Shown here one piece after another: positions 6,501 to 59,605 of a stretch of DNA of 64,000 nt. Made by a program: the position numbers and the translations under genes. Position 1 is the stretch's first letter, and each line of letters begins with the position of its first letter. Source of the stretch: an uncultured Opitutaceae bacterium (GTDB lineage: Bacteria > Verrucomicrobiota > Verrucomicrobiia > Opitutales > Opitutaceae). The notes beneath the pieces are model-generated. The model saw only the letters and a program-made list of their open reading frames with translations, made no database searches and was not told where the DNA came from. Location of the stretch: contig CAZGJZ010000007.1 of NCBI GenBank assembly GCA_964525935.1, forward strand, positions 43,336-107,335. The letters run 5' to 3'.

Positions 6501-8389
6501 ACTCCAACTATACTGGCACCGCCTCGGATATTTTCGTCATCAGCAAAGGACCGCAGTCCGTGGCGTTCCCTATCATCCCCACTCAAGTTTACGGCAGCGC
6601 CCCATTCGCCCTTGAGGCCACGGCCACCTCCGGCCTCCCCGTCAGCTTCCAGCTCATCTCCGGACCAGCCTCGCTCGATGGGTCAACACTCGCACTCAGC
6701 GGTGCAGGCACCGTCGTCGTCTCCGCCAGCCAGGCAGGCAATGCTTACTATCTGCCTGCTGCGGCGATAGAGCAAAGTATCACCGTGGCAAAAGCCGCAG
6801 CCTCCGTGACTCTTTCCAATCTTGTCCAAGCATACAACGGAGCGGCCAGAAATGTCAGTGTCACTACCGCGCCTTCGGGACTGTCCACGACGATTGTTTA
6901 TAACGGCACGGCCCAAGTGCCCTCAGCGGCTGGCTCGTATAACGTCACAGTGACAATCCTCGACGATAACTATGCGGGCAACGCCTACGGAGTTCTTGAA
7001 ATCGTTGGGCCGCCCTCGGTCACGACCGGCGACGTTTCCCAAGCCATCAACGAAGGTGGCAGTCTCGTGCTGACCGCGACACCTTCAGGGCTCCCACCAT
7101 TCAGCTATCAGTGGTTCAAGGACGGTGAACCCATCGACGGCGCCACCGGCAGCTCGCTCGAAATCTCCAACGTCAACGCCTCGACCACCGGCAGCTACAC
7201 CGTCCAGGTGTCCAACGCCGGCGGCACCGCCACCAGCCCGCCCACCACCGTCAACGTCACCCTCAAGCCCACCCTGCCGGGCGATTCCTCCACTGTGAAT
7301 GCGCCGCTCGGACAGGAACTCGTGCTGACGATGCCCGTCAACCAAGGCACTCCGCCATTCACCTACCAGTGGAAAAAGGACGGCGAGGACATCCCCGGAG
7401 CCAACTCGCCTACGTTGAGTCTCCCCAATCCCACCGAAGCCGATTCCGGTGATTACCAACTCTACGTCACCAACGCTGCCGGCGACGCCACCAGCGGCAT
7501 CATCAAAGTGATCTTGCGGGGTGCGCCCTTGGTTTATCCGTTCGCCAACCAAGTCGTCGCCCCGGGAGCGACCGCTGTGTTCACCACCACATTTGTCGCC
7601 GCGGTTTCAGCCGACCTGCAGTGGTTCTTCGATGACGCGCCCATCGCCGGCGCAATCGACGACGTGTTGACCATCGAAAACGTGCAACTGGCAAACCTCG
7701 GCCGCTACCACCTGCGGGTGCGCGACGCGTTCGGTGAAGCCACGCAGTCCGCCACCCTGAAATTCTCGCAGCAAATCACGTTCAATCCACTCCCCGATGT
7801 GCCTCAAGGACCGACCCCCATCACCCTCCGCGCGACGGCCACCTCCGGCCTGCCGGTGATTTTCCACGCCTACAACATCGCGCAGAGCGGCAATGTCATC
7901 ACTCCGCTCAGCAACTGGGGCGAAGTGCTCGTCGTGGCGGAGCAAGCGGGCAACGAACTTTATGCACCCGCCACACTCGTCGAACGCCGCTTCCTTGTCA
8001 TCTCACGCTATGAAACGTGGAACCAGGAACACTTCACCGAAGCCGAGTTGACGGACCCCACGATCAGCGGGCCAGCCGCCGACCCGGACGCCGACGGCTT
8101 GAATAACCTGCTCGAATACGCCTTCGGGTTCGATCCGCGACAAACGACCGCCTCCACCGAGCAGGAAGTCGCCATGATCGACGCTTTCTGGCACTTCACC
8201 TACAAACGACCGACCGACCGCCTCGATCTCACCTATCAAGTGGAAGCCTCCCGCGACCTAACCACTTGGGTCACGAGCGGTTTCGTCCCCGCCAAAATCG
8301 CCGACGATGGCACCTACGAAACCTGGCGGGCGCGCTATATCACCGAGGACGATCGGCCCGTATTTTTCCGCCTCAAGGTCACTCGCTAG
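3533..8389 (+). CDS. giant secreted multi-repeat protein (BACON-like N-terminus, ~13-14 RCC1 blades, MBG-like repeats, Ig I-set-like repeats)
   Basis: ORF-track 3212..8389. The first 107 codons are Arg-rich and overlap the upstream gene; ATG 3533 gives signal peptide MRIFFALRASCFLLATTAIAQ. Repeats seen: HSLFIKTDGSLWAMGxNxxGQLGDGTT (RCC1); YGTALSxxQLNA...TYSPAAGT (MBG-like); PPFxYQWxKDGE...GxYxxxVxNAAG (Ig-like). C-terminal motif DPDADGLNNLLEYAFGFDP. Confidence 0.85.
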   Translation: MRIFFALRASCFLLATTAIAQVTLSPVSKQIGAGDIVYEILLESDVAAWTATSNAAWLSVSPATGNGRTVLTAKAAKNATAAARTATITIGTAAHTLIQQGTAASGHDLLVVGANSSGQLGTLGYPYVRPDIPGGDTAAIAAGSSHSLFLKTDGSLWITGATPTQIATNVASIAAGGNHSLFIKTDGSLWAMGNNSNGQLGDGTTTNRATPVQIATDVGFVAAGYSHSLFVKTDGSLWAMGNNVSGRLGDGTTTGRSTPVQIATGVTSAAGGGEHSLFIKSDGSLWAMGYNAFGQLGDGTTTSRNSPVQITTGVVSVTAGAAHSSFIKTDGSLWAMGYNLYGSLGDGTTTRRNAPVQIAANVAAVSAGSYHSLFIKADGSVWAAGYNAAGQLGDGTTTNRATPVQVATDVTSVATGDNHSLFVKTDGSTRAMGSFNSGQLGYSMPARSKPTQVITGVTAVAAGATHSLFVRTDGALWAMGANAYGQLGSGTLFNRSAPVPIATDVVTIAAGISHSLFIKTDGSLWAMGLNSSGQLGDGTTTNRFTPVQVATGVVAIAAGPTHSLFIKTDGTLWGMGSNSYGLLGDGTTTSRITPIQIATDVVSANAGQGHSLFIKSDGSLWGMGFNNAGQLGTNLVSQSSTARLIATNVAAVSGGGLQTLFVKNDQTLWATGWNHVGQLGDGTTTSRYSPVQIATGVAAVHTTGSWSNFEGAINLGHTFFVKTDGSLWSMGLNTSGQLGDSSTTDRLAPVQIASGSTNVAVGGSHTLILFGPEGVLTPPPLIVPTLTWTTPAAISYGTALSPAQLNATTSVSGTLTYSPAAGTLLDAGTHTLTASFAPTDTATYATAAITRQLVVTQATPTITWSTPGAIVYGTALSGNQLNASADVPGSFVYSPAAGTVFNAGSLALTATFTPSDSTNYQSASATRSLVITPAPAEITFSNLTATYTGTPHSASATTSPVGLGLAFTYDGGSSAPTIPGSYAVVATISDSNYTGTASDIFVISKGPQSVAFPIIPTQVYGSAPFALEATATSGLPVSFQLISGPASLDGSTLALSGAGTVVVSASQAGNAYYLPAAAIEQSITVAKAAASVTLSNLVQAYNGAARNVSVTTAPSGLSTTIVYNGTAQVPSAAGSYNVTVTILDDNYAGNAYGVLEIVGPPSVTTGDVSQAINEGGSLVLTATPSGLPPFSYQWFKDGEPIDGATGSSLEISNVNASTTGSYTVQVSNAGGTATSPPTTVNVTLKPTLPGDSSTVNAPLGQELVLTMPVNQGTPPFTYQWKKDGEDIPGANSPTLSLPNPTEADSGDYQLYVTNAAGDATSGIIKVILRGAPLVYPFANQVVAPGATAVFTTTFVAAVSADLQWFFDDAPIAGAIDDVLTIENVQLANLGRYHLRVRDAFGEATQSATLKFSQQITFNPLPDVPQGPTPITLRATATSGLPVIFHAYNIAQSGNVITPLSNWGEVLVVAEQAGNELYAPATLVERRFLVISRYETWNQEHFTEAELTDPTISGPAADPDADGLNNLLEYAFGFDPRQTTASTEQEVAMIDAFWHFTYKRPTDRLDLTYQVEASRDLTTWVTSGFVPAKIADDGTYETWRARYITEDDRPVFFRLKVTR

Positions 8390-8406
8390 CCGGCAGCCAG
8401 CAAAAA

Positions 8407-8433
8407 GGGCGGTTTTCAGAGTGAAAACCGCCC
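8407..8433. terminator. GC-rich hairpin flanked by A/T runs; candidate bidirectional intrinsic terminator
   Basis: gggcggtttt / aaaaccgccc 10-bp stem with a short loop, preceded by aaaaa and followed by ttaaaaa. Lies between the giant CDS stop (8389) and the convergent tRNA. Confidence 0.6.
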
Positions 8434-8440
8434 TTAAAAA

Positions 8441-8516
8441 TGGAGCCGAGCATCGGATTTGAACCGACGACCCACGCTTTACGAAAGCGTTGCTCTACCA
8501 ACTGAGCTAGCTCGGC
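8441..8516 (-). tRNA. tRNA-Thr (anticodon CGU), CCA encoded
   Basis: Reverse complement folds as a cloverleaf. Acceptor GCCGAGC/GCTCGGC; D arm GCTC-AGTTGGTA-GAGC; anticodon stem ACGCT/AGCGT with loop TTCGTAA; T arm GTCGG-TTCAAAT-CCGAT; then T-CCA. Confidence 0.9.
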
Positions 8517-8637
8517 ACTGAGGGAATAGCGGAAGAAACCCGCCGCGATAGCAAGCGCAAGCCTTCATTTGGCGGCTGCGGGCCGGTCCGCCTGCACTTC
8601 GGAAAAGCGGGCCAGCCGCCCGCACTCCCGGCCGCAC

Positions 8638-9483
8638 TCAATTTGCCCCGATCGCCTGCACGATGGCGTTCACGTTCTCACCCGGCGGTCGCGTATTAAA
8701 CGTCCACTTGCCCACCGCCCGCTCCGCCGATCCGCGGCACAGCACGGCGCCATGGCCCCACTTCGGGTGCAAAACCTGCACCGTCGGCGGACAATAACGC
8801 ACGGTCAGGCCGCAACGCCGGCGGTCCGACCCATTCGGGTCCGAACCGTGCGCCAGCATGTCGGCATGCAGCGAAAACTGGCCCGCCTTCAGCACATCAT
8901 AAACCGGCTGGCCATACTGGCCGATGTTTTCGATCTCCTGGTTAAGCACGGCCGGGCCGGTGACTTCGCGCCACTTCAAGTGGCCCTTTGAATGCGTGCC
9001 GGGCAAAAACTTCATCGCCGCGTTTTCCACGTCGGCATCGTCAATCGCCAGCCACACCGTCACCGTCCGCGCCGGGGTCAGCGGCCAGTAGGAAGCATCC
9101 TGATGCCAGGCGACTTTCTTCGGGTCGTGCGGCTGCTTGCAGAAGAAATGGCTGCCCCAGCAAACGACGTCCGGACCAATCAGGTCCTGCACGTAGTCAA
9201 GGATGATCGGGTTCGTCACGATGTCGTAGAGCCCGGCGCAATGAACGTGAAAACCATTGATCGAATACGAATCGAGATCGCTCCGGGCTTTTTGCACCTT
9301 CGCGAGCAAATCGTCGAAGTAAACCCGGTTCTGCACGGCCTCCGCCGGCGTGTAGGCCGAGAGCGGCGCAATGTAGCCTTTTTCGTTATAAAACCGGATC
9401 TGTTCCGGCGTCAGTCGGCGCGGCGCAGCGGTCGCAACCGGTTGAAAGCTAAGATCGCGCTCTTCCTTGGCAGGGGTAGACAT
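8638..9483 (-). CDS. phytanoyl-CoA dioxygenase (PhyH) family Fe(II)/2-oxoglutarate oxygenase
   Basis: 281 aa. PhyH-like motifs WHQDASYWPL and distal His (LHADMLAHGS); typical length. Confidence 0.8.
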   Translation of the reverse strand: MSTPAKEERDLSFQPVATAAPRRLTPEQIRFYNEKGYIAPLSAYTPAEAVQNRVYFDDLLAKVQKARSDLDSYSINGFHVHCAGLYDIVTNPIILDYVQDLIGPDVVCWGSHFFCKQPHDPKKVAWHQDASYWPLTPARTVTVWLAIDDADVENAAMKFLPGTHSKGHLKWREVTGPAVLNQEIENIGQYGQPVYDVLKAGQFSLHADMLAHGSDPNGSDRRRCGLTVRYCPPTVQVLHPKWGHGAVLCRGSAERAVGKWTFNTRPPGENVNAIVQAIGAN

Positions 9484-9529
9484 GGCAAAAATCCGTAGAG
9501 CGCGGGCCGGCGTTTACCAAGAAAAATGA

Positions 9530-10654
9530 ATGGCGATTTGCCGCCCCGCCCGCCTCAGTCGTTTTTGTCCCATCACCGTGCCGCCGCTCGCCACCGATCT
9601 TTTCGACTACCACCTGCCGCCTCACCTCGTCGCCCAGACGCCGGCCGCGCGCCGGGACGCCTCGCGCCTGCTGGTCGTCGATCGCGCTACACGGAGCCTC
9701 GCGCACCACACCTTCGCCGACCTGCCGCAATTCCTTCGCGCCGGCGACACACTCTTCCGCAACAACGCCGCCGTCCTCCCCGCGCGCCTGCTCGCCCGCC
9801 GCCCCACCGGTGGCCAAGTCGAGTGCTTCCTCCTCCGGCCCGCCGATGGCGAACAGGTCTGGCGTTGCCTCATCAAGCCCGGGAAAAAACTCCCGGTCGG
9901 CGCGGTGTTTGCCCATGAGTCCGACGCGTTTTCCGGCGAAATCGTCGCCAAAGACCCCGACGGCTCCGCGCTCGTGCGCCTGCGCACCGCCAGCGGCGAG
10001 CCGATCACCGCCGTCGCCAACCGCCTCGGCGAAGTCCCGCTGCCGCCCTACATCACGCGCGACGACAGCACGCAACGCCACCGCGACCTCGAGCGCTACC
10101 AAACCGTTTATGCCGACCGCGCACGCCAAGTCGCCGTCGCCGCGCCCACTGCCGGGCTGCACTTCACGCCCGAGTTGCTCGCCGCGCTCACCGCGCAAGG
10201 TATAAAGGCCGCCGAAGTCACGCTGCACGTCGGGCTGGGCACTTTTAAACCCATCACTAGCGAAACGGTCGAGACGCACGACATCCATCGCGAGCTCTAC
10301 GAACTGCCCGTCGCCACGCAGCAGGCCTTGTTCAATACCAAGGGCCGCCGCATCGCCGTCGGCACCACCACCGTGCGCAGCGTCGAGGATTTTCTCGGCA
10401 CGCACTCCGCGCCACTCGCCCACCCACATCTCGCTGAGGCCGGCAGCTTCATTTATCCGCCGCGCCCGTTCCGCGGCGTGGATGCGTTGATCACCAATTT
10501 CCATCAACCTCGCTCGACGTTGCTCTGCCTCGTCAGCGCGTTTCTCACGCCTGGCTCGACCGACGGCATCGCGTGGCTGAAAGAAATCTACGCCGAGGCC
10601 ATCACCCGCGAATACCGCTTCTTCAGCTATGGCGACGCCATGTTGATTCTATGA
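9530..10654 (+). CDS. queA: S-adenosylmethionine:tRNA ribosyltransferase-isomerase
   Basis: TDLFDYHLPPHLVAQTPAARRDASRLLVV N-terminus, PLPPYI, TAGLHFT, VGTTTVRSVE and ITNFHQPRSTLL motifs. An in-frame GTG at 9578 is an alternative start. Confidence 0.9.
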   Translation: MAICRPARLSRFCPITVPPLATDLFDYHLPPHLVAQTPAARRDASRLLVVDRATRSLAHHTFADLPQFLRAGDTLFRNNAAVLPARLLARRPTGGQVECFLLRPADGEQVWRCLIKPGKKLPVGAVFAHESDAFSGEIVAKDPDGSALVRLRTASGEPITAVANRLGEVPLPPYITRDDSTQRHRDLERYQTVYADRARQVAVAAPTAGLHFTPELLAALTAQGIKAAEVTLHVGLGTFKPITSETVETHDIHRELYELPVATQQALFNTKGRRIAVGTTTVRSVEDFLGTHSAPLAHPHLAEAGSFIYPPRPFRGVDALITNFHQPRSTLLCLVSAFLTPGSTDGIAWLKEIYAEAITREYRFFSYGDAMLIL

Positions 10655-10701
10655 TTTGCAGAAATCATAAATCGCGACACACTGAGCGCCCTATCCCTAT
10701 T

Positions 10702-11289
10702 ATGCACAAAATTATCCGCCAGCTTGCCCTCTCTGCCCTCGTCCTTGGCCTGTTCGCCTCCGCGCGTGCCGCCACCGAGACCTATGTCATCGATAGCGTC
10801 CACTCGTCCGTCGGTTTCAGCATCCGCCACATGGTTTCCAAGGTGCCCGGCAGCTTCACCCAGTTCTCCGGCACCATCACCGTCGACCAGGACAACATGG
10901 AGCATAATTCCGTCGAAGCCGTCATCGATGTCGGCTCGATCAACACCGCGAACGAAAAACGCGACGGCCACCTCAAGACCCCCGACTTCTTCGATGCCGC
11001 CCAGTTCGCCACCATCACATTCAAGAGCAAGGCGTGGAAGAAGACCGGCGCCGACACCTACGATGTCACCGGCGACCTTACGATCAAGGACGTCACGAAG
11101 GAAGTCGTGCTCAACGTCACGGCACTCGGCTTTGGTCCCGGCATGAAACCCAACTCCAAGCTCTCCGGTTGGGAAGCCACCACGACCCTCAAGAAATCCG
11201 ACTTCAACCTCAGCGGCCCCGCCATGCTCGGCAAGGTCCTCGGTGACGAGGTCAAGGTGCACATCAACATCGAAGCCGGCCTCAAGTAA
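10702..11289 (+). CDS. YceI family periplasmic polyisoprenoid-binding protein
   Basis: ORF-track 10573..11289. ATG 10702 gives signal peptide MHKIIRQLALSALVLGLFASARA, then YVIDSVHSSVGFSIRHMVSKVPGSFTQFSG, typical of YceI. Confidence 0.85.
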   Translation: MHKIIRQLALSALVLGLFASARAATETYVIDSVHSSVGFSIRHMVSKVPGSFTQFSGTITVDQDNMEHNSVEAVIDVGSINTANEKRDGHLKTPDFFDAAQFATITFKSKAWKKTGADTYDVTGDLTIKDVTKEVVLNVTALGFGPGMKPNSKLSGWEATTTLKKSDFNLSGPAMLGKVLGDEVKVHINIEAGLK

Positions 11290-42415: not shown

Positions 42416-42537
42416 GTTGGGAGCGCGGGCGGCCCGCCCCCCTCGCTCGGTCATTATTTGCCTTCCGGGAAAATCACCGGGGAGCCTTGATTTCACTTGG
42501 TGGTGAACCGTAACCCACTGCAACCCCACCCCTAGCC

Positions 42538-42978
42538 ATGACCTTTCGTGAAATGACTCCTGCCGATTTGCCGGACTCCTTTCTTATCCGGACTGCCGCC
42601 AAGGAAAATCCCTTCCCCATGGAATCTTTGATTGCCATCGGCATCACCGTGGAGTCGGTCACGCAATTACTCGCCACCACTCATCGCGGCTGGGTCTGCG
42701 AGATCTCCGGCCGTGTTGTCGGGTTTGCGATAGGTGACCGCAGCAGTGGCGAAGTTTGGGTGATTGCGGTGCGGCAAGAACACGAGGGCAAAGGCATCGG
42801 CCGGCGCTTGATGCTGCTCACGCAGGAGTGGCTGTGGAGCGAAGGGTCAACCAAGCTTTGGCTCGTCACCGGTGTCGCGCCCAGCCGGGCTTTTCACCTG
42901 TATTCCAAGTTGGGCTGGCAAGACTGCGGCCCCGTCGACGATGGCGTTAATCGCCGGATGGAACTCACCCGTCCCTAA
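42538..42978 (+). CDS. GNAT-family N-acetyltransferase
   Basis: 146 aa. VIAVRQEHEGKGIGRRLM (Q/RxxGxG/A acetyl-CoA loop). Confidence 0.75.
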   Translation: MTFREMTPADLPDSFLIRTAAKENPFPMESLIAIGITVESVTQLLATTHRGWVCEISGRVVGFAIGDRSSGEVWVIAVRQEHEGKGIGRRLMLLTQEWLWSEGSTKLWLVTGVAPSRAFHLYSKLGWQDCGPVDDGVNRRMELTRP

Positions 42979-43092
42979 CTCGGGCCGATCAAACCGTATC
43001 GCACTGCGACCTCGCTGCCCCTGCGCTTTCGCCCGAACACCCCGGCCGATAATCAAGCCAGCCACAAATCGTTAGAATCAAATGACCAAGCC

Positions 43093-55833: not shown

Positions 55834-56547
55834 TCATGAGATGAACAGCCGACTATCCGCGGTCTCATGCCGCGCCGCCGCGATATCCAGCCACGGGTTA
55901 AACCAGCCGATCTCCTCGAATGGCACCTGCTCTGCCGCCGCAATAATACCGGGCGCAGACGCCAGTGCCTCCGTAAGCAAAGTCTGTGAAGCGTTCTGTC
56001 CGAGGCGCAGCACTTTCATCGCCGCGGAAACCAGCGAGGCCGTGCTGGCATAATAAACTCCCGCAAGCACTGCCGCCTGCGGCGCACCCAACACGCGGCC
56101 TTCGAGCGCGGCCGAGACCGCCGCCGAAAACGGCCAAACCTCAGACGCTGCGCGTTGCAGATACTCCTGCGCCAACGGATGCACATGCAAAAGCGCGGTG
56201 AGTTCGGCGCGCTGGCGGCCGATATTATCCGCCGCCGTCCGCAGCTCGCGAGGCGCCTTGAGCGCCGCCGAAAGCCAGCACAGCTCCGCGAGACGCGACC
56301 AATCCTGTGTTCCCAACGCTTGCCAGGCATGCGCCGCCAGCGGCAGTTCCGCCTGACGCAAGGACGGCAGCACGGAAAACAGGAGAAATTCCCGCAGCGT
56401 CGCCCGGTCGCGAATCACGCCTTCCTGCACCAATCCCTCCAAGCCGAAGGAATGCGCGTAGCTGCCCGTCGGATAAAACGAGTCTCCCGCCTGCAACAGG
56501 CCCACGAGCCAGGCCGTGTCAGTGCTGGTGGCTGGGGCCGAGTTCAT
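55834..56547 (-). CDS. ureF: urease accessory protein UreF
   Basis: ORF-track 55834..56706. ATG 56547 gives MNSAPATSTDTAWLVGLLQAGDSFYPTGSYAHSFGLE. Overlaps the ureE 3' end by 29 nt. Confidence 0.8.
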   Translation of the reverse strand: MNSAPATSTDTAWLVGLLQAGDSFYPTGSYAHSFGLEGLVQEGVIRDRATLREFLLFSVLPSLRQAELPLAAHAWQALGTQDWSRLAELCWLSAALKAPRELRTAADNIGRQRAELTALLHVHPLAQEYLQRAASEVWPFSAAVSAALEGRVLGAPQAAVLAGVYYASTASLVSAAMKVLRLGQNASQTLLTEALASAPGIIAAAEQVPFEEIGWFNPWLDIAAARHETADSRLFIS

Positions 56548-56983
56548 GCGTGGGAAGATTTCCGCGGGCAAAACGTCCCGGACGGAAAATAGCCGTCGTC
56601 TGCCTGAACGGCACCTTGAGCCGCTCGAGAAGTTGACGCACCGCTGGCTCATCGGGCGCGAGCAAACGCGTCGGCTCGGCGGAAAGCTCGAGGTGCAGAT
56701 TGCCAATCGCCCAGCCGATGCCGGCCGCGGCTGAAGGTGCCACGTCGAGCGAAACTTCGATCACGGGTTCGGGTTGTTGTTCGATGACATAGCGCGCGCT
56801 CGCGGTCTGCCAGAAGGTGTCGCCGTGCTTGAGCGGTGCTACCAATTCAAAGCCAAATTCCATGCCGTCCTCAGCTGTGGAGCGCCAAAGACGCTTTACC
56901 ACAGTTATCCGGTCAACTCGGAGCAATACCTCCCGCAACGCTAAATCGGGCTGGGTGACGGCAGTGTGAATAAGCGTGAACAC
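56519..56983 (-). CDS. ureE: urease accessory protein UreE
   Basis: 154 aa, GTG start. GNLHLEL motif and a short His-containing tail, GPSHQH. Confidence 0.8.
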   Translation of the reverse strand: MFTLIHTAVTQPDLALREVLLRVDRITVVKRLWRSTAEDGMEFGFELVAPLKHGDTFWQTASARYVIEQQPEPVIEVSLDVAPSAAAGIGWAIGNLHLELSAEPTRLLAPDEPAVRQLLERLKVPFRQTTAIFRPGRFARGNLPTHELGPSHQH

Positions 56984-57050
56984 AGATTGACACAGCTATT
57001 AGCAAGGATCGGACCAGTCCAGCGCGGCCTTAACCTAAGAATGCACGATG

Positions 57051-57830
57051 CTAAATTCGCTTACCTAATAGAACATGGTATGGCGTCGCACCAAATCGCG
57101 AAAATAACTGAACGCAGCCAACAAGATATGTATGCCCATCCATCGATCCCTCTCGGATGGCTATAGCATGCATCCCTTTGGTTACGCGTTGTGGTTCTTC
57201 ATATGCAGATGAGACAAATCGCCAAGCCTGCTCTGGTTGTTCGCAAATAATTTTAGGTGCAAACAACTCATACTTTGAAAAATCCGTCTCACAATATGCC
57301 GCGTATGCGTATGCAATTTTCACTAGAACTGCGCAGAATGAAAAAGGGTCGATATCACAAATCAGCGACCCACTAGTCGCATTGTGCTTTTGGATCAATT
57401 TGACGAATGCTGGACTGTCTGGCGGTAGTGAATTATGTCCTGAAATCTTCATTTGAGCTACCTCGGGGGAGGTCAGAATTGCTGGGCCATCAATGAGTGG
57501 AAGAACCAGAAAAGCGATAGCCTCATCGCTTGGCACGTCAGTGGTCCATTCTCGTTGGCCATCCCCAAATCTCATTTTGAGTGTAACAGGACGGTTCTTT
57601 TTCCTGCGCGTGGGCGACTGGTTCACAGTTCTCCAATCTAACATAAAACCGCGCAGCACTTGCAGTTCCTGCTTGCTGGTCTGTGCTGCGCAGACCGCGC
57701 AGCTTGCCTTCTTTAACGTCAAGTCGCCCCATAGGGCAAAAGGCACTATGTGTTCTTCAGAAAGGGCTTCGCATGCACCGCAATAAATGCAGTGCCCAAC
57801 AATCTTATTTGGAAGTCGGCCATCATCCAT
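57051..57830 (-). CDS. HNH/zinc-finger nuclease-like protein (HNH_5-like N-terminus, unknown C-terminal domain) in a low-GC insert
   Basis: 259 aa. CIYCGACEALSEEHIVPFALWG plus a second CxxC (CAVCAAQ) fits a Cys4 beta-beta-alpha-metal finger. GC is roughly 45-48% against ~65% in the flanks. The ATG lies 5 nt after the ureC stop. Confidence 0.6.
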   Translation of the reverse strand: MDDGRLPNKIVGHCIYCGACEALSEEHIVPFALWGDLTLKKASCAVCAAQTSKQELQVLRGFMLDWRTVNQSPTRRKKNRPVTLKMRFGDGQREWTTDVPSDEAIAFLVLPLIDGPAILTSPEVAQMKISGHNSLPPDSPAFVKLIQKHNATSGSLICDIDPFSFCAVLVKIAYAYAAYCETDFSKYELFAPKIICEQPEQAWRFVSSAYEEPQRVTKGMHAIAIREGSMDGHTYLVGCVQLFSRFGATPYHVLLGKRI

Positions 57831-57835
57831 ACGAA

Positions 57836-59605
57836 TCAGAACAGAAAATACCGCTGCGCCATCGGCAGCACCTTCGCCGGCTCGCAGGTCAGGTGCACGC
57901 CATCGGCGGTGACTTTATAAGTCTCGGGATCGACTTGGATCCGGGGCATAGCGTCGTTGAGCACCATGTCGGCCTTACCGATCTTACGACAGGACTTCAC
58001 CGGCTCGAGCCGGCGCGCGAGGCCGAGTTGCTTCGGGCCGTTTTTGCTGCGGAGCGAAGCGGCGCTGACAAAGGTAATGCTGGTCGACGTGAGCGCCTTG
58101 CCGGCGGCGCCAAACTGCGGACGGTAAAAGGTCGGCTGCGGTGTGGGGATCGAGGCGTTCGGATCACCCATGTTGGCCCACGCAATGAAGCCGCCTTTCA
58201 AAACGGTCTCTGGTTTTACGCCGAAGAGCGCAGGCTTGAAAATGACGAGGTCGGCGAGCTTGCCGACTTCGATTGAGCCCACGATGTGCGAGATGCCATG
58301 CGCGATGGCGGGGTTGATCGTGTATTTGGCGAGATAGCGCAGGCAACGAAAGTTGTCGGCGGCGGGATGCGACTGGTGCGTCATCGCTCCGATCTGGAGC
58401 TTCATTTTGTGAGCTGTCTGCCACGTGCGGATGATGACTTCGCCGATGCGGCCCATGGCCTGTGAGTCAGACGACATCATCGAGATGGCGCCGAGATCAT
58501 GGAGCCGATCCTCGGCCGCGATGGTCTCGGGGCGGATGCGGGACTCCGCGAAGGCTACATCCTCGGGAATCTTCGAATCGAGATGGTGGCAGACCATGAG
58601 CATGTCGAGATGCTCGTCGATGGTGTTAACCGTAAAGGGACGCGTCGGATTGGTGGACGACGGCAGGACATTGGCTTCGCCGCAAACGCGGATGATGTCG
58701 GGCGCATGCCCGCCACCGGCGCCCTCGGAGTGAAAAGTGTGAATCGTGCGACCTTTGAAGGCGCGGATCGTGTCGTCCACATAGCCGGACTCATTGAGCG
58801 TGTCGGTGTGGATCGCCACCTGCACGTCGAGCTCATCGGCCACGCCGAGACAGGTGTCGATCGCGGCGGGGGTTGTGCCCCAGTCCTCGTGCAGTTTGAG
58901 GCCGATGGCCCCGGCGAGGATTTGTTCGCGCAGCGGCGCTGCGGTGCCGCAGTTGCCCTTCCCGAGGAAGCCGAGGTTCATCGGATAGGCCTCCGCCGCT
59001 TCGAGCATGCGATGCAGGTTCCAGGCGCCGGGCGTGCACGTCGTGGCAAACGTGCCGTGCGCCGGCCCGGTGCCGCCGCCGAGCATCGTGGTAATGCCGG
59101 CGCTGATCGCCTCGTCGATCTGCTGCGGACAGATGAAATGGATATGGGTGTCGATGCCGCCGGCGGTGATGATGTTGCCCTCGCCCGCGATCACCTCCGT
59201 GGCGGCGCCCACGATCATCGGGTTTTTCTTCTTCGTGCGCGGATCCACGAAGATCGAGCCGATGCCTGATTGGATGCCGGGATTACCCGCGTGGCCGATG
59301 CCGACAATCAGCCCGTGCTTGATGCCGATGTCGGCCTTGATGACGCCAAGGATGGGATCGAGGATGAGCGCGTTGGTGATGACGAGATCGAGGGCATCCT
59401 TGTCGAGCGCGGTCGGCGACTGGCCCATGCCGTCGCGGATGACCTTGCCGCCACCGAACTTGATCTCATTGCCGTAACCGCCGCCCTCGGCGATGAGGTC
59501 GCGCTCGACCTGCACGAAAAGCTCGGTGTCAGCGAGCCGCACGCGGTCGCCCACAGTGGGCCCGAACATCTCGGCGTATTGGCGGCGGGAAAGCTTCAGC
59601 GGCAT
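57836..59605 (-). CDS. ureC: urease subunit alpha
   Basis: 589 aa. [46 protein letters not shown] and similar motifs. Confidence 0.95.

Follow-up and report, generated by a model that had tools for sequence, protein, structure and literature searches.

The stretch of DNA described here, called the window throughout, consists of 64,000 nucleotides from an uncultured Opitutaceae bacterium (assembly GCA_964525935.1, contig CAZGJZ010000007.1, positions 43,336 to 107,335 of the forward strand) and includes the genes of a urease operon. Between two of these genes, ureC and ureE, lies a single open reading frame (ORF), designated orfX, which encodes a protein of 259 amino acids (aa) and whose ATG follows the ureC stop codon after only 5 nt. 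An earlier inspection of the letters of the DNA, referred to below as the sequence-only reading, had described the ORF in these terms, and both the coordinates and the sequence agree with that description. The evidence supports the view that orfX reached the operon by horizontal transfer, as a one-gene island between ureC and ureE that encodes an HNH/zinc-finger nuclease-like protein. The coordinates of the locus and of related features are collected in Table 1.

The composition of orfX sets it apart from its surroundings. In 200-bp windows the GC content is 0.42-0.53 across positions 57000-57900 and 0.60-0.69 on both sides. The gene has a GC content of 47.6% and a GC content at third codon positions (GC3) of 0.44, compared with GC3 values of 0.66-0.89 for 13 other genes of the window, and no other 780-bp window in the 64 kb has a GC content as low (mean 0.629, standard deviation 0.029, z = -5.4). 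The low-GC segment that the sequence-only reading had picked out by eye is thus borne out by computation, the window mean being 62.9%, but its impression that the composition fades around 57000-57050 is not. The last 900 nt of ureC (GC3 of 0.74-0.80) and the whole of ureE (0.63-0.70) keep a host-like GC3, so that the low-GC tract is limited to the insert and has sharp edges. A spread of low GC into ureC or ureE, which would have hinted at import together with flanking homology, was not found. In Logan assemblies from SRR8931241 and SRR8931242, which are different sequencing runs, both junctions are 100% identical to the window, and therefore the arrangement is not the product of a chimeric assembly; the orfX protein is also called identically in independent assemblies.

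The organization of the ureC-ureE junction in other bacteria was examined by a UreC scan with one genome per species, which gave 80 ureC loci for comparison, including five Opitutaceae-level relatives. The best UreC matches are 84-91% identical, and the window is placed in the Opitutaceae (Verrucomicrobiota). No homologue of orfX was found at any of the 80 other ureC loci. In the closest relative (L011, UreC 91% identical) the site is empty, with 24 bp between ureC and ureE, and in remoter Verrucomicrobiota the gap between the two genes is 9-112 bp. A three-way alignment shows that homology ends exactly at the ureC stop and resumes at the ureE start. Other relatives have something else at this position. 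The junction of L012 (Opitutaceae metagenome-assembled genome OZ245769, UreC 90%; positions 7817-8304) holds, in operon orientation, a 67-aa ORF overlapping a gene for a 99-aa ParE toxin (PF05016, E = 8e-17); the 67-aa ORF, which lies upstream of ParE and has no Pfam match, is presumably the antitoxin. In L013 (UreC 88%; 7768-10868) the junction is occupied by a 3.1-kb block of host-like GC encoding an Asp/Glu racemase, a HAD hydrolase and a YchJ/SEC-C protein. The ureEFGD block of L016 (UreC 84%; 7756-10365) is inverted directly after ureC, such that ureD converges on ureC. Given that in sister genomes this position is rearranged or taken up by other cargo, the ureC 3' junction is a permissive and repeatedly rearranged spot in this clade, of which orfX is one of several alternative occupants, and it looks like a recurrent breakpoint. 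Composition by itself would not establish the gain of orfX, low GC being partly a property of the orfX family (see below); the case is built on the empty site in relatives. The horizontal insertion claimed by the sequence-only reading is upheld by the empty site of L011 and the absence of homologues from the other loci, but low GC, in a family whose members are typically AT-richer than their hosts, does not by itself show that the insertion was recent.

Signs of the route by which orfX entered the operon were sought in the region. Only chance-level direct and inverted repeats of 9-18 nt are present, with no terminal repeat or target-site duplication, and neither an integrase, a transposase or other recombinase, nor a partner ATPase was found among the neighbours, which are urease genes. 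The sequence-only reading had likewise noted no integrase, flanking repeats or PtuA-like partner. The 67-86-nt 3' region has no attC-like hairpin: its predicted folding energies of -3 to -5.8 kcal/mol are worse than those of shuffled sequences on both strands (z = +1.2 to +1.5). No Rfam element was matched in the 67-nt spacer region. It is possible that orfX entered by illegitimate recombination, or alternatively by import from a relative via flanking homology. With regard to expression, no promoter-like site was found upstream of orfX, the 5-nt spacer being too short to hold a promoter of its own, and a terminator scan found nothing between orfX and ureE. A terminator-like hairpin followed by a T-run is present at 57852-57870 on the minus strand, within the last ureC codons. 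Because the peptide encoded there is conserved in all relatives, this hairpin is probably a by-product of the coding sequence and not a real terminator.

The N-terminal part of the orfX protein resembles a Cys4-zinc HNH nuclease module. The sole Pfam match is to HNH_5 (PF14279) over residues 14-50 (E = 0.0022, 18.3 bits), which is below the gathering cut-off of 27.5 bits; NCBIfam and PHROGs gave only noise at the level of HNH. The same model is matched by 86 of 89 aligned family members (E <= 0.01; best 3.2e-11), and no other domain is matched by any of the 89. In the full AlphaFold (AF2) model, which has a mean predicted local distance difference test (pLDDT) score of 89 and a predicted template modelling (pTM) score of 0.88, the module adopts a beta-beta-alpha-metal topology with strands at residues 24-27 and 38-43 and a helix at 45-59, and H27 ends the first strand. 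The Cys4 HNH_5-like finger (CIYCG...EH...CAVCA) proposed in the sequence-only reading is therefore supported by the model as well as by the family. Ten residues are invariant among the 89 sequences (C14, Y16, C17, E26, H27, G35, C44, T51, E55 and K171), and orfX has all ten; C47, R60, R67, R75, P81, I172, G207, H221, L242 and F243 are nearly invariant. Position 47 is Cys in 86 of the 89 members and His in the other three.

PDB sequences were searched with the protein and with profiles of 15 and 89 sequences; the matches were all weak and limited to the HNH core, in IscB/Cas9-like proteins and in 4H9D, the structure of Gmet_0936. Residues 14-51 of orfX align weakly (E = 0.16) to residues 36-78 of 4H9D. 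In this alignment the zinc ligands C38, C41, C73 and C76 of Gmet_0936 correspond to C14, C17, C44 and C47 of orfX, and the first metal ligand and general base, D53-H54, correspond to E26-H27. The helix metal ligand directly after the last Cys, N77 in Gmet_0936, is replaced by A48 in orfX. The equivalent residues in Hpy99I are D148 (corresponding to E26) and N165, the helix Asn at the position of A48 (PMC3765158).

No relative was found for the C-terminal alpha/beta domain, a region of about 200 aa that the sequence-only reading had not recognised. It has no Pfam, NCBIfam, PHROG or PADLOC domain. Foldseek searches of PDB and BFVD with the full model found no fold relative (best E 0.1-0.3), and with a model of the C-terminal domain alone (pLDDT 85) the best match in PDB had E = 0.11, and TM scores were 0.15-0.27. 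A recognizable modified-base-sensing domain (SRA, EVE/PUA, winged helix or SBD) was not found in it by Pfam or by PDB fold.

The orfX protein belongs to a large and diverged family. A word-indexed search recovered 16 relatives, and a profile search of 1.84 billion cluster representatives recovered 5,293 at E < 1e-3 and 2,010 at E < 1e-30. Among the 150 best-scoring representatives most are full length, at about 255-300 aa. Public sources name family members no more specifically than "hypothetical protein" or "HNH endonuclease", and neither Pfam, PADLOC nor NCBIfam has a model that represents the whole family. The ratio of nonsynonymous to synonymous substitution rates (dN/dS) is 0.18-0.35 in all family pairs in which dS is not saturated; dS between orfX and its nearest relatives is saturated, and the range covers other pairs of the family. 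These values indicate that the family is under purifying selection. In 26 of the 45 loci with enough flanking sequence, the GC content of the family gene is lower than that of its flanks by more than 3 points, and it is higher in only three.

None of the nearest relatives of orfX, which are 57-66% identical, is urease-linked, and Opitutaceae are the source of at least some of these genes as well. In one case the flanks are a Fic gene and a cluster of Mrr, HsdM and HsdR-N genes. Another relative, which is 65% identical (L177:595-1371, from Logan SRR22387807), has an in-frame TAG in the first zinc motif (CI*CG), and the database protein for this copy (P0003) was called from an internal Met. To judge from this decaying reading frame, copies of the family do decay. 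The closest relative (66%; L176:1-80, on a contig of GCA_030841345.1) starts 10 nt after the stop of an upstream ORF on the same strand, and like orfX it is tightly packed and promoter-less. More generally, 57 of 76 upstream genes are co-oriented with the family gene and 26 lie within 100 nt of it, which is not unusual for bacteria.

Most members of the family occupy variable regions, where their neighbours are restriction, Gabija, Fic, toxin-antitoxin, integrase and insertion sequence (IS) genes. Searches of 150 neighbours with Pfam and PADLOC identified N6 methyltransferases, Fic/SoFic proteins, GajA and GajB, and MADS and PDC candidates, as well as an AbiEii-like ATPase, a KAP NTPase, EcoRV, resolvases and integrases, a set that is heterogeneous overall; a few family members follow an N6 methyltransferase. 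A tblastn search found four plasmid matches annotated "HNH endonuclease", and neighbours of the plasmid homologues include integrases, IS5, DUF262, a PDDEXK nuclease and HipA. Clustering of 329 neighbour ORFs from 92 loci revealed no general partner gene, the largest cluster being present at six of the 92 loci, and these loci have neither a recurrent neighbour of antitoxin size nor urease genes nearby.

One subfamily is linked to mutS. In at least four lineages, known from metagenome contigs, the family gene follows mutS in the same orientation, at a distance of a few to about 40 nt. The MutS proteins of these lineages are 78-88% identical and the HNH-family proteins, which are intact, are 67-83% identical, with dN/dS values of about 0.23-0.35. 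The divergence of the two proteins is roughly in step, a sign that the mutS-linked copies are inherited vertically. This subfamily may be hitch-hiking over the long term, or it may have a functional connection with mismatch repair. Its genes have a GC content of 0.41-0.44 compared with 0.53-0.59 for mutS, a difference of 10-18 points. Because they stay AT-rich through long vertical descent, low GC is partly a family property.

Table 1. Features of the orfX locus and of mutS-linked family members, with the coordinates of the window unless a contig is given
Feature	Coordinates	Strand	Description and basis
orfX	57051..57830	-	259 aa, HNH_5-like module and uncharacterised C-terminal domain; end coordinate includes stop codon; ORF list
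Whole inserted segment (ureC-ureE spacer)	56984..57835	-	852 bp; L011 empty-site alignment and window GC minimum
ureC (urease alpha)	57836..59605	-	Upstream flank, host-like composition; PF00449
ureE	56519..56983	-	Downstream flank; PF05194, E = 3.9e-12
5-nt spacer (TTCGT)	57831..57835	-	ureC stop (TGA) to orfX ATG; sequence
67-nt spacer	56984..57050	-	orfX stop (TAG) to ureE GTG; sequence
Cys4-zinc beta-beta-alpha (HNH_5-like) module of orfX, residues 12-59	57654..57797	-	C14/C17/C44/C47, E26-H27, A48, T51, E55
C-terminal alpha/beta domain of orfX, residues 60-259	57054..57653	-	Conserved R60, R67, R75, K171-I172, H221, L242-F243
mutS-linked copies (metagenome contigs)	L117:7980-8756, L143:7980-8762, L173:1400-2185, L136:530-1312		Canonical mutS (MutS_I-V) directly upstream

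Start-codon annotation within the urease operon needs care. The longest ureF ORF (55834-56706, 290 aa from a TTG) would share 188 nt with ureE, and the UreF called by Logan is shorter, at 237 aa. UreE is called by Logan at 114 aa, and relatives favour a 154-aa form starting from the GTG at 56983; this full-length form is kept in relatives and is 72% identical to UreE of L011 and L012 over residues 1-155. Elsewhere in the window, the only other segment with a GC content below 0.55 in 780-bp windows is at 42450-43050. It overlaps a 146-aa ORF at 42538-42978 on the plus strand, which by the appearance of its sequence may encode a GNAT-type acetyltransferase-like protein.

The explanation of the locus that is held here, with moderate confidence, is that orfX is a solo, horizontally acquired nuclease gene of the defence-island type (or a selfish one) that occupies a variable operon junction and is probably read through from the urease promoter. 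In this scheme orfX would be transcribed by read-through with the urtABCDE-ureABC...EFGD urease/urea-transporter operon, and its translation could possibly occur by re-initiation 5 nt past the ureC stop. The product would act as a one-gene defence-type or selfish nuclease whose HNH head cuts or nicks nucleic acid, with E26-H27 retained and T51 and E55 standing in for the Asn or His ligand. The C-terminal domain would provide recognition of a target or trigger, for example modified or foreign DNA, by analogy with type IV restriction. So understood, orfX would be unrelated to urease chemistry. A broader proposal, offered tentatively and with considerable doubt, is that the whole family constitutes a widespread, unnamed class of single-gene immune or selfish nucleases whose sensor fold would be new and whose HNH site would be non-canonical. 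In addition to their places in defence islands, these nucleases would settle directly behind highly expressed housekeeping genes (ureC and mutS), borrow transcription from them and be kept for long periods.

Several observations weigh against a defence nuclease. Position 48, directly after the last Cys and usually the Asn or His metal ligand, is Ala in 60 of the 89 members as well as in orfX itself, and Asn in only five; with the canonical ligand replaced in this way, catalysis is not assured. There are precedents for HNH proteins of little or no activity in HlpB of B. subtilis, which binds DNA with no detectable cleavage, and in Gmet_0936, for which the nicking is weak. No PADLOC (v2) model matches orfX. 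There is no functional evidence for any member of the family. The link with defence genes is one of qualitative guilt by association with no background correction, and the vertical inheritance of the mutS-linked subfamily is as compatible with a housekeeping-adjacent role as with defence. A literature search found neither a named single-gene HNH defence system with the architecture of orfX nor a relevant report of genes inserted in ure operons.

The replacement at position 48 lends itself to an alternative in which the HNH module does not cleave, and orfX is a co-opted zinc-finger nucleic-acid binder, or a growth-arresting toxin or addiction factor, at a junction that tolerates small selfish genes. 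The replacement of the Asn/His ligand across the family, the precedents of HlpB and Gmet_0936 and the ParE module at the same junction in L012 are consistent with this alternative. The conservation of the metal ligand and general base E26-H27, together with T51 and E55, in 100% of the sequences is nonetheless the pattern expected of a working non-canonical site. The sequence-only reading had correctly noted that the Asn after the second CxxC is Ala in orfX, but had considered that the nuclease might be degenerate; judged from the alignment, Ala48 is a conserved family trait and not the result of local decay, and the invariant T51 and E55, which lie on the same helix, suggest an active site that is re-wired and not dead. 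An addiction factor would be expected to have a partner, yet no conserved neighbour of antitoxin size was found, and spacers of 5 nt and 67 nt cannot encode one. This alternative is considered unlikely, though it stays as a rival. A type II toxin-antitoxin module was rejected on the same grounds, as there is no adjacent small partner and the spacers leave no room for it. Alternatively, orfX could be a free-standing homing endonuclease that cuts the empty ureC/ureE junction and is copied in by recombinational repair, as with the mob and seg genes of T4-like phages. The precise, same-orientation insertion of an HNH-fold gene between conserved genes with no integrase, transposase or terminal repeat would fit homing, as would the empty allele in L011 and the presence of another subfamily directly behind mutS. 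The closest homologues, however, are in unrelated contexts, one of them a defence island and one a pseudogene, no second occupied ureC/ureE site is present among the 80 loci, and the different cargo of sister genomes points to a permissive site and not to a nuclease-specific target. Moreover, tblastn found no family match in 50,697 phage genomes and IMG/VR contains only three, and the divergence of the mutS-linked copies with MutS speaks for vertical inheritance and not for repeated homing. Homing is for these reasons regarded as quite improbable.

Two further explanations concern the origin of the gene. The integration of orfX into the operon, co-oriented and tightly packed, and its intact reading frame with all of the family-invariant residues could be taken as signs of an ancestral accessory gene of the urease cluster, since lost from most relatives. 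The sequence-only reading had allowed for such a gene if the ORF were conserved at this position, with host-like GC, in all relatives. It is absent from all of the ureC loci compared, those of the five Opitutaceae-level relatives among them; homologues elsewhere are never urease-linked, and the GC3 of orfX is foreign to the window. The 80 loci lacking a homologue effectively refute this explanation. It has also to be considered that orfX arrived as the passenger of a mobile element, either as an integron cassette at a secondary site or within the remnant of an IS or a miniature inverted-repeat transposable element (MITE). Proteins with PF14279 are reported among the abundant functions of integron cassettes (PMC7370490), and orfX is a lone ORF that has no promoter of its own and only a short 3' tail, but the 67-nt tail lacks an attC-like hairpin, its fold being weaker than that of shuffled sequences. 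Also against a passenger are the lack of terminal repeats beyond chance, of a transposase or integrase in the region and of an Rfam match. With attC, terminal repeats and structured RNA all looked for and none found, the passenger explanation is largely refuted and is thought very improbable. Among the three functions that the sequence-only reading had considered, a homing-type nuclease is accordingly disfavoured, a degenerate nuclease co-opted for another role is retained as the rival described above, and a one-gene defence module on operon transcription fits best, through its context only.

The locus itself represents an ordinary event, the gain of a small accessory gene within an operon, and stand-alone accessory nucleases with an HNH domain are already known as a kind. 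Its consequence for urease biology is little, in that the operon carries a passenger that might exert some polarity on ureEFGD. The family level is more useful, for it combines an HNH_5 head with a fold that has no solved relative, comprises thousands of diverged representatives and is maintained by purifying selection. Should this architecture prove to be that of a one-gene defence nuclease, the catalogue would gain a new sensor domain and an unusual variant of the His-Me active site. The presence of the family in housekeeping operons (ure, and behind mutS) is a location that island-based discovery of defence systems misses, a point made about defence genes in general in the DefensePredictor paper (PMC13092281). 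The ureC 3' junction of Opitutaceae provides in addition a small example of a permissive operon site that gathers selfish cargo.

Comparison with known systems shows where orfX resembles them and where it departs from them. The ParE pair of L012 is likewise a small module of selfish type at the identical junction and in the same orientation, but it is an unrelated two-gene module with a GC content only about 4 points below its flanks. PtuB of Septu is, like orfX, an HNH-type nuclease module from defence islands; orfX differs in having no PtuA-like ATPase or other conserved partner and no PADLOC match, and in being flanked by ureC and ureE. In type IV restriction enzymes the HNH domain is usually C-terminal and the sensor domains have known folds (SRA, EVE/PUA, winged helix or SBD), whereas the HNH module of orfX is N-terminal and its other domain has no match among solved structures. 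orfX shares with these enzymes (McrA, ScoMcrA, TagI; winged-helix fusions, PMC11037411) the combination of HNH and a second domain in a single polypeptide, and the orfX family resembles them in needing no cognate methyltransferase and in occurring in defence islands. The likeness serves as a working analogy, and membership is not claimed.

The homing endonucleases of T4-like phages (mobA-E; Group 1, PMC5714182) are also single HNH genes wedged between conserved genes with no recombinase or repeats, but the orfX family is virtually absent from phage genomes, its contexts are varied and no recurrence at ureC/ureE was found among the 80 loci. Among the smaller HNH proteins, HlpB, to which the NCBIfam search had led, is a stand-alone HNH-like protein of 100 aa and was set aside since the relation is at the level of the domain only. 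Gmet_0936 (4H9D) of Geobacter metallireducens is a Cys4-zinc HNH protein that, as with orfX, has no adjacent methyltransferase (PMC3765158); it differs in its length of 104 aa, in having no extra domain and in keeping N77 where orfX has A48. The classification of His-Me finger nucleases by Jablonska et al. 2017 (PMC5714182) includes, besides Group 1, an undescribed bacteria-only "Group 8" defined by PF14279. The orfX family may belong to Group 8, on which PMC5714182 has no text. Although orfX scores below the cut-off for HNH_5, has an Ala after the last Cys and carries a 200-aa C-terminal domain that lies outside any model, the core of HNH_5 (PF14279) and of the His-Me finger, a CxxC...(D/E)H...CxxC zinc-ribbon with beta-beta-alpha topology, is also found in the orfX family.

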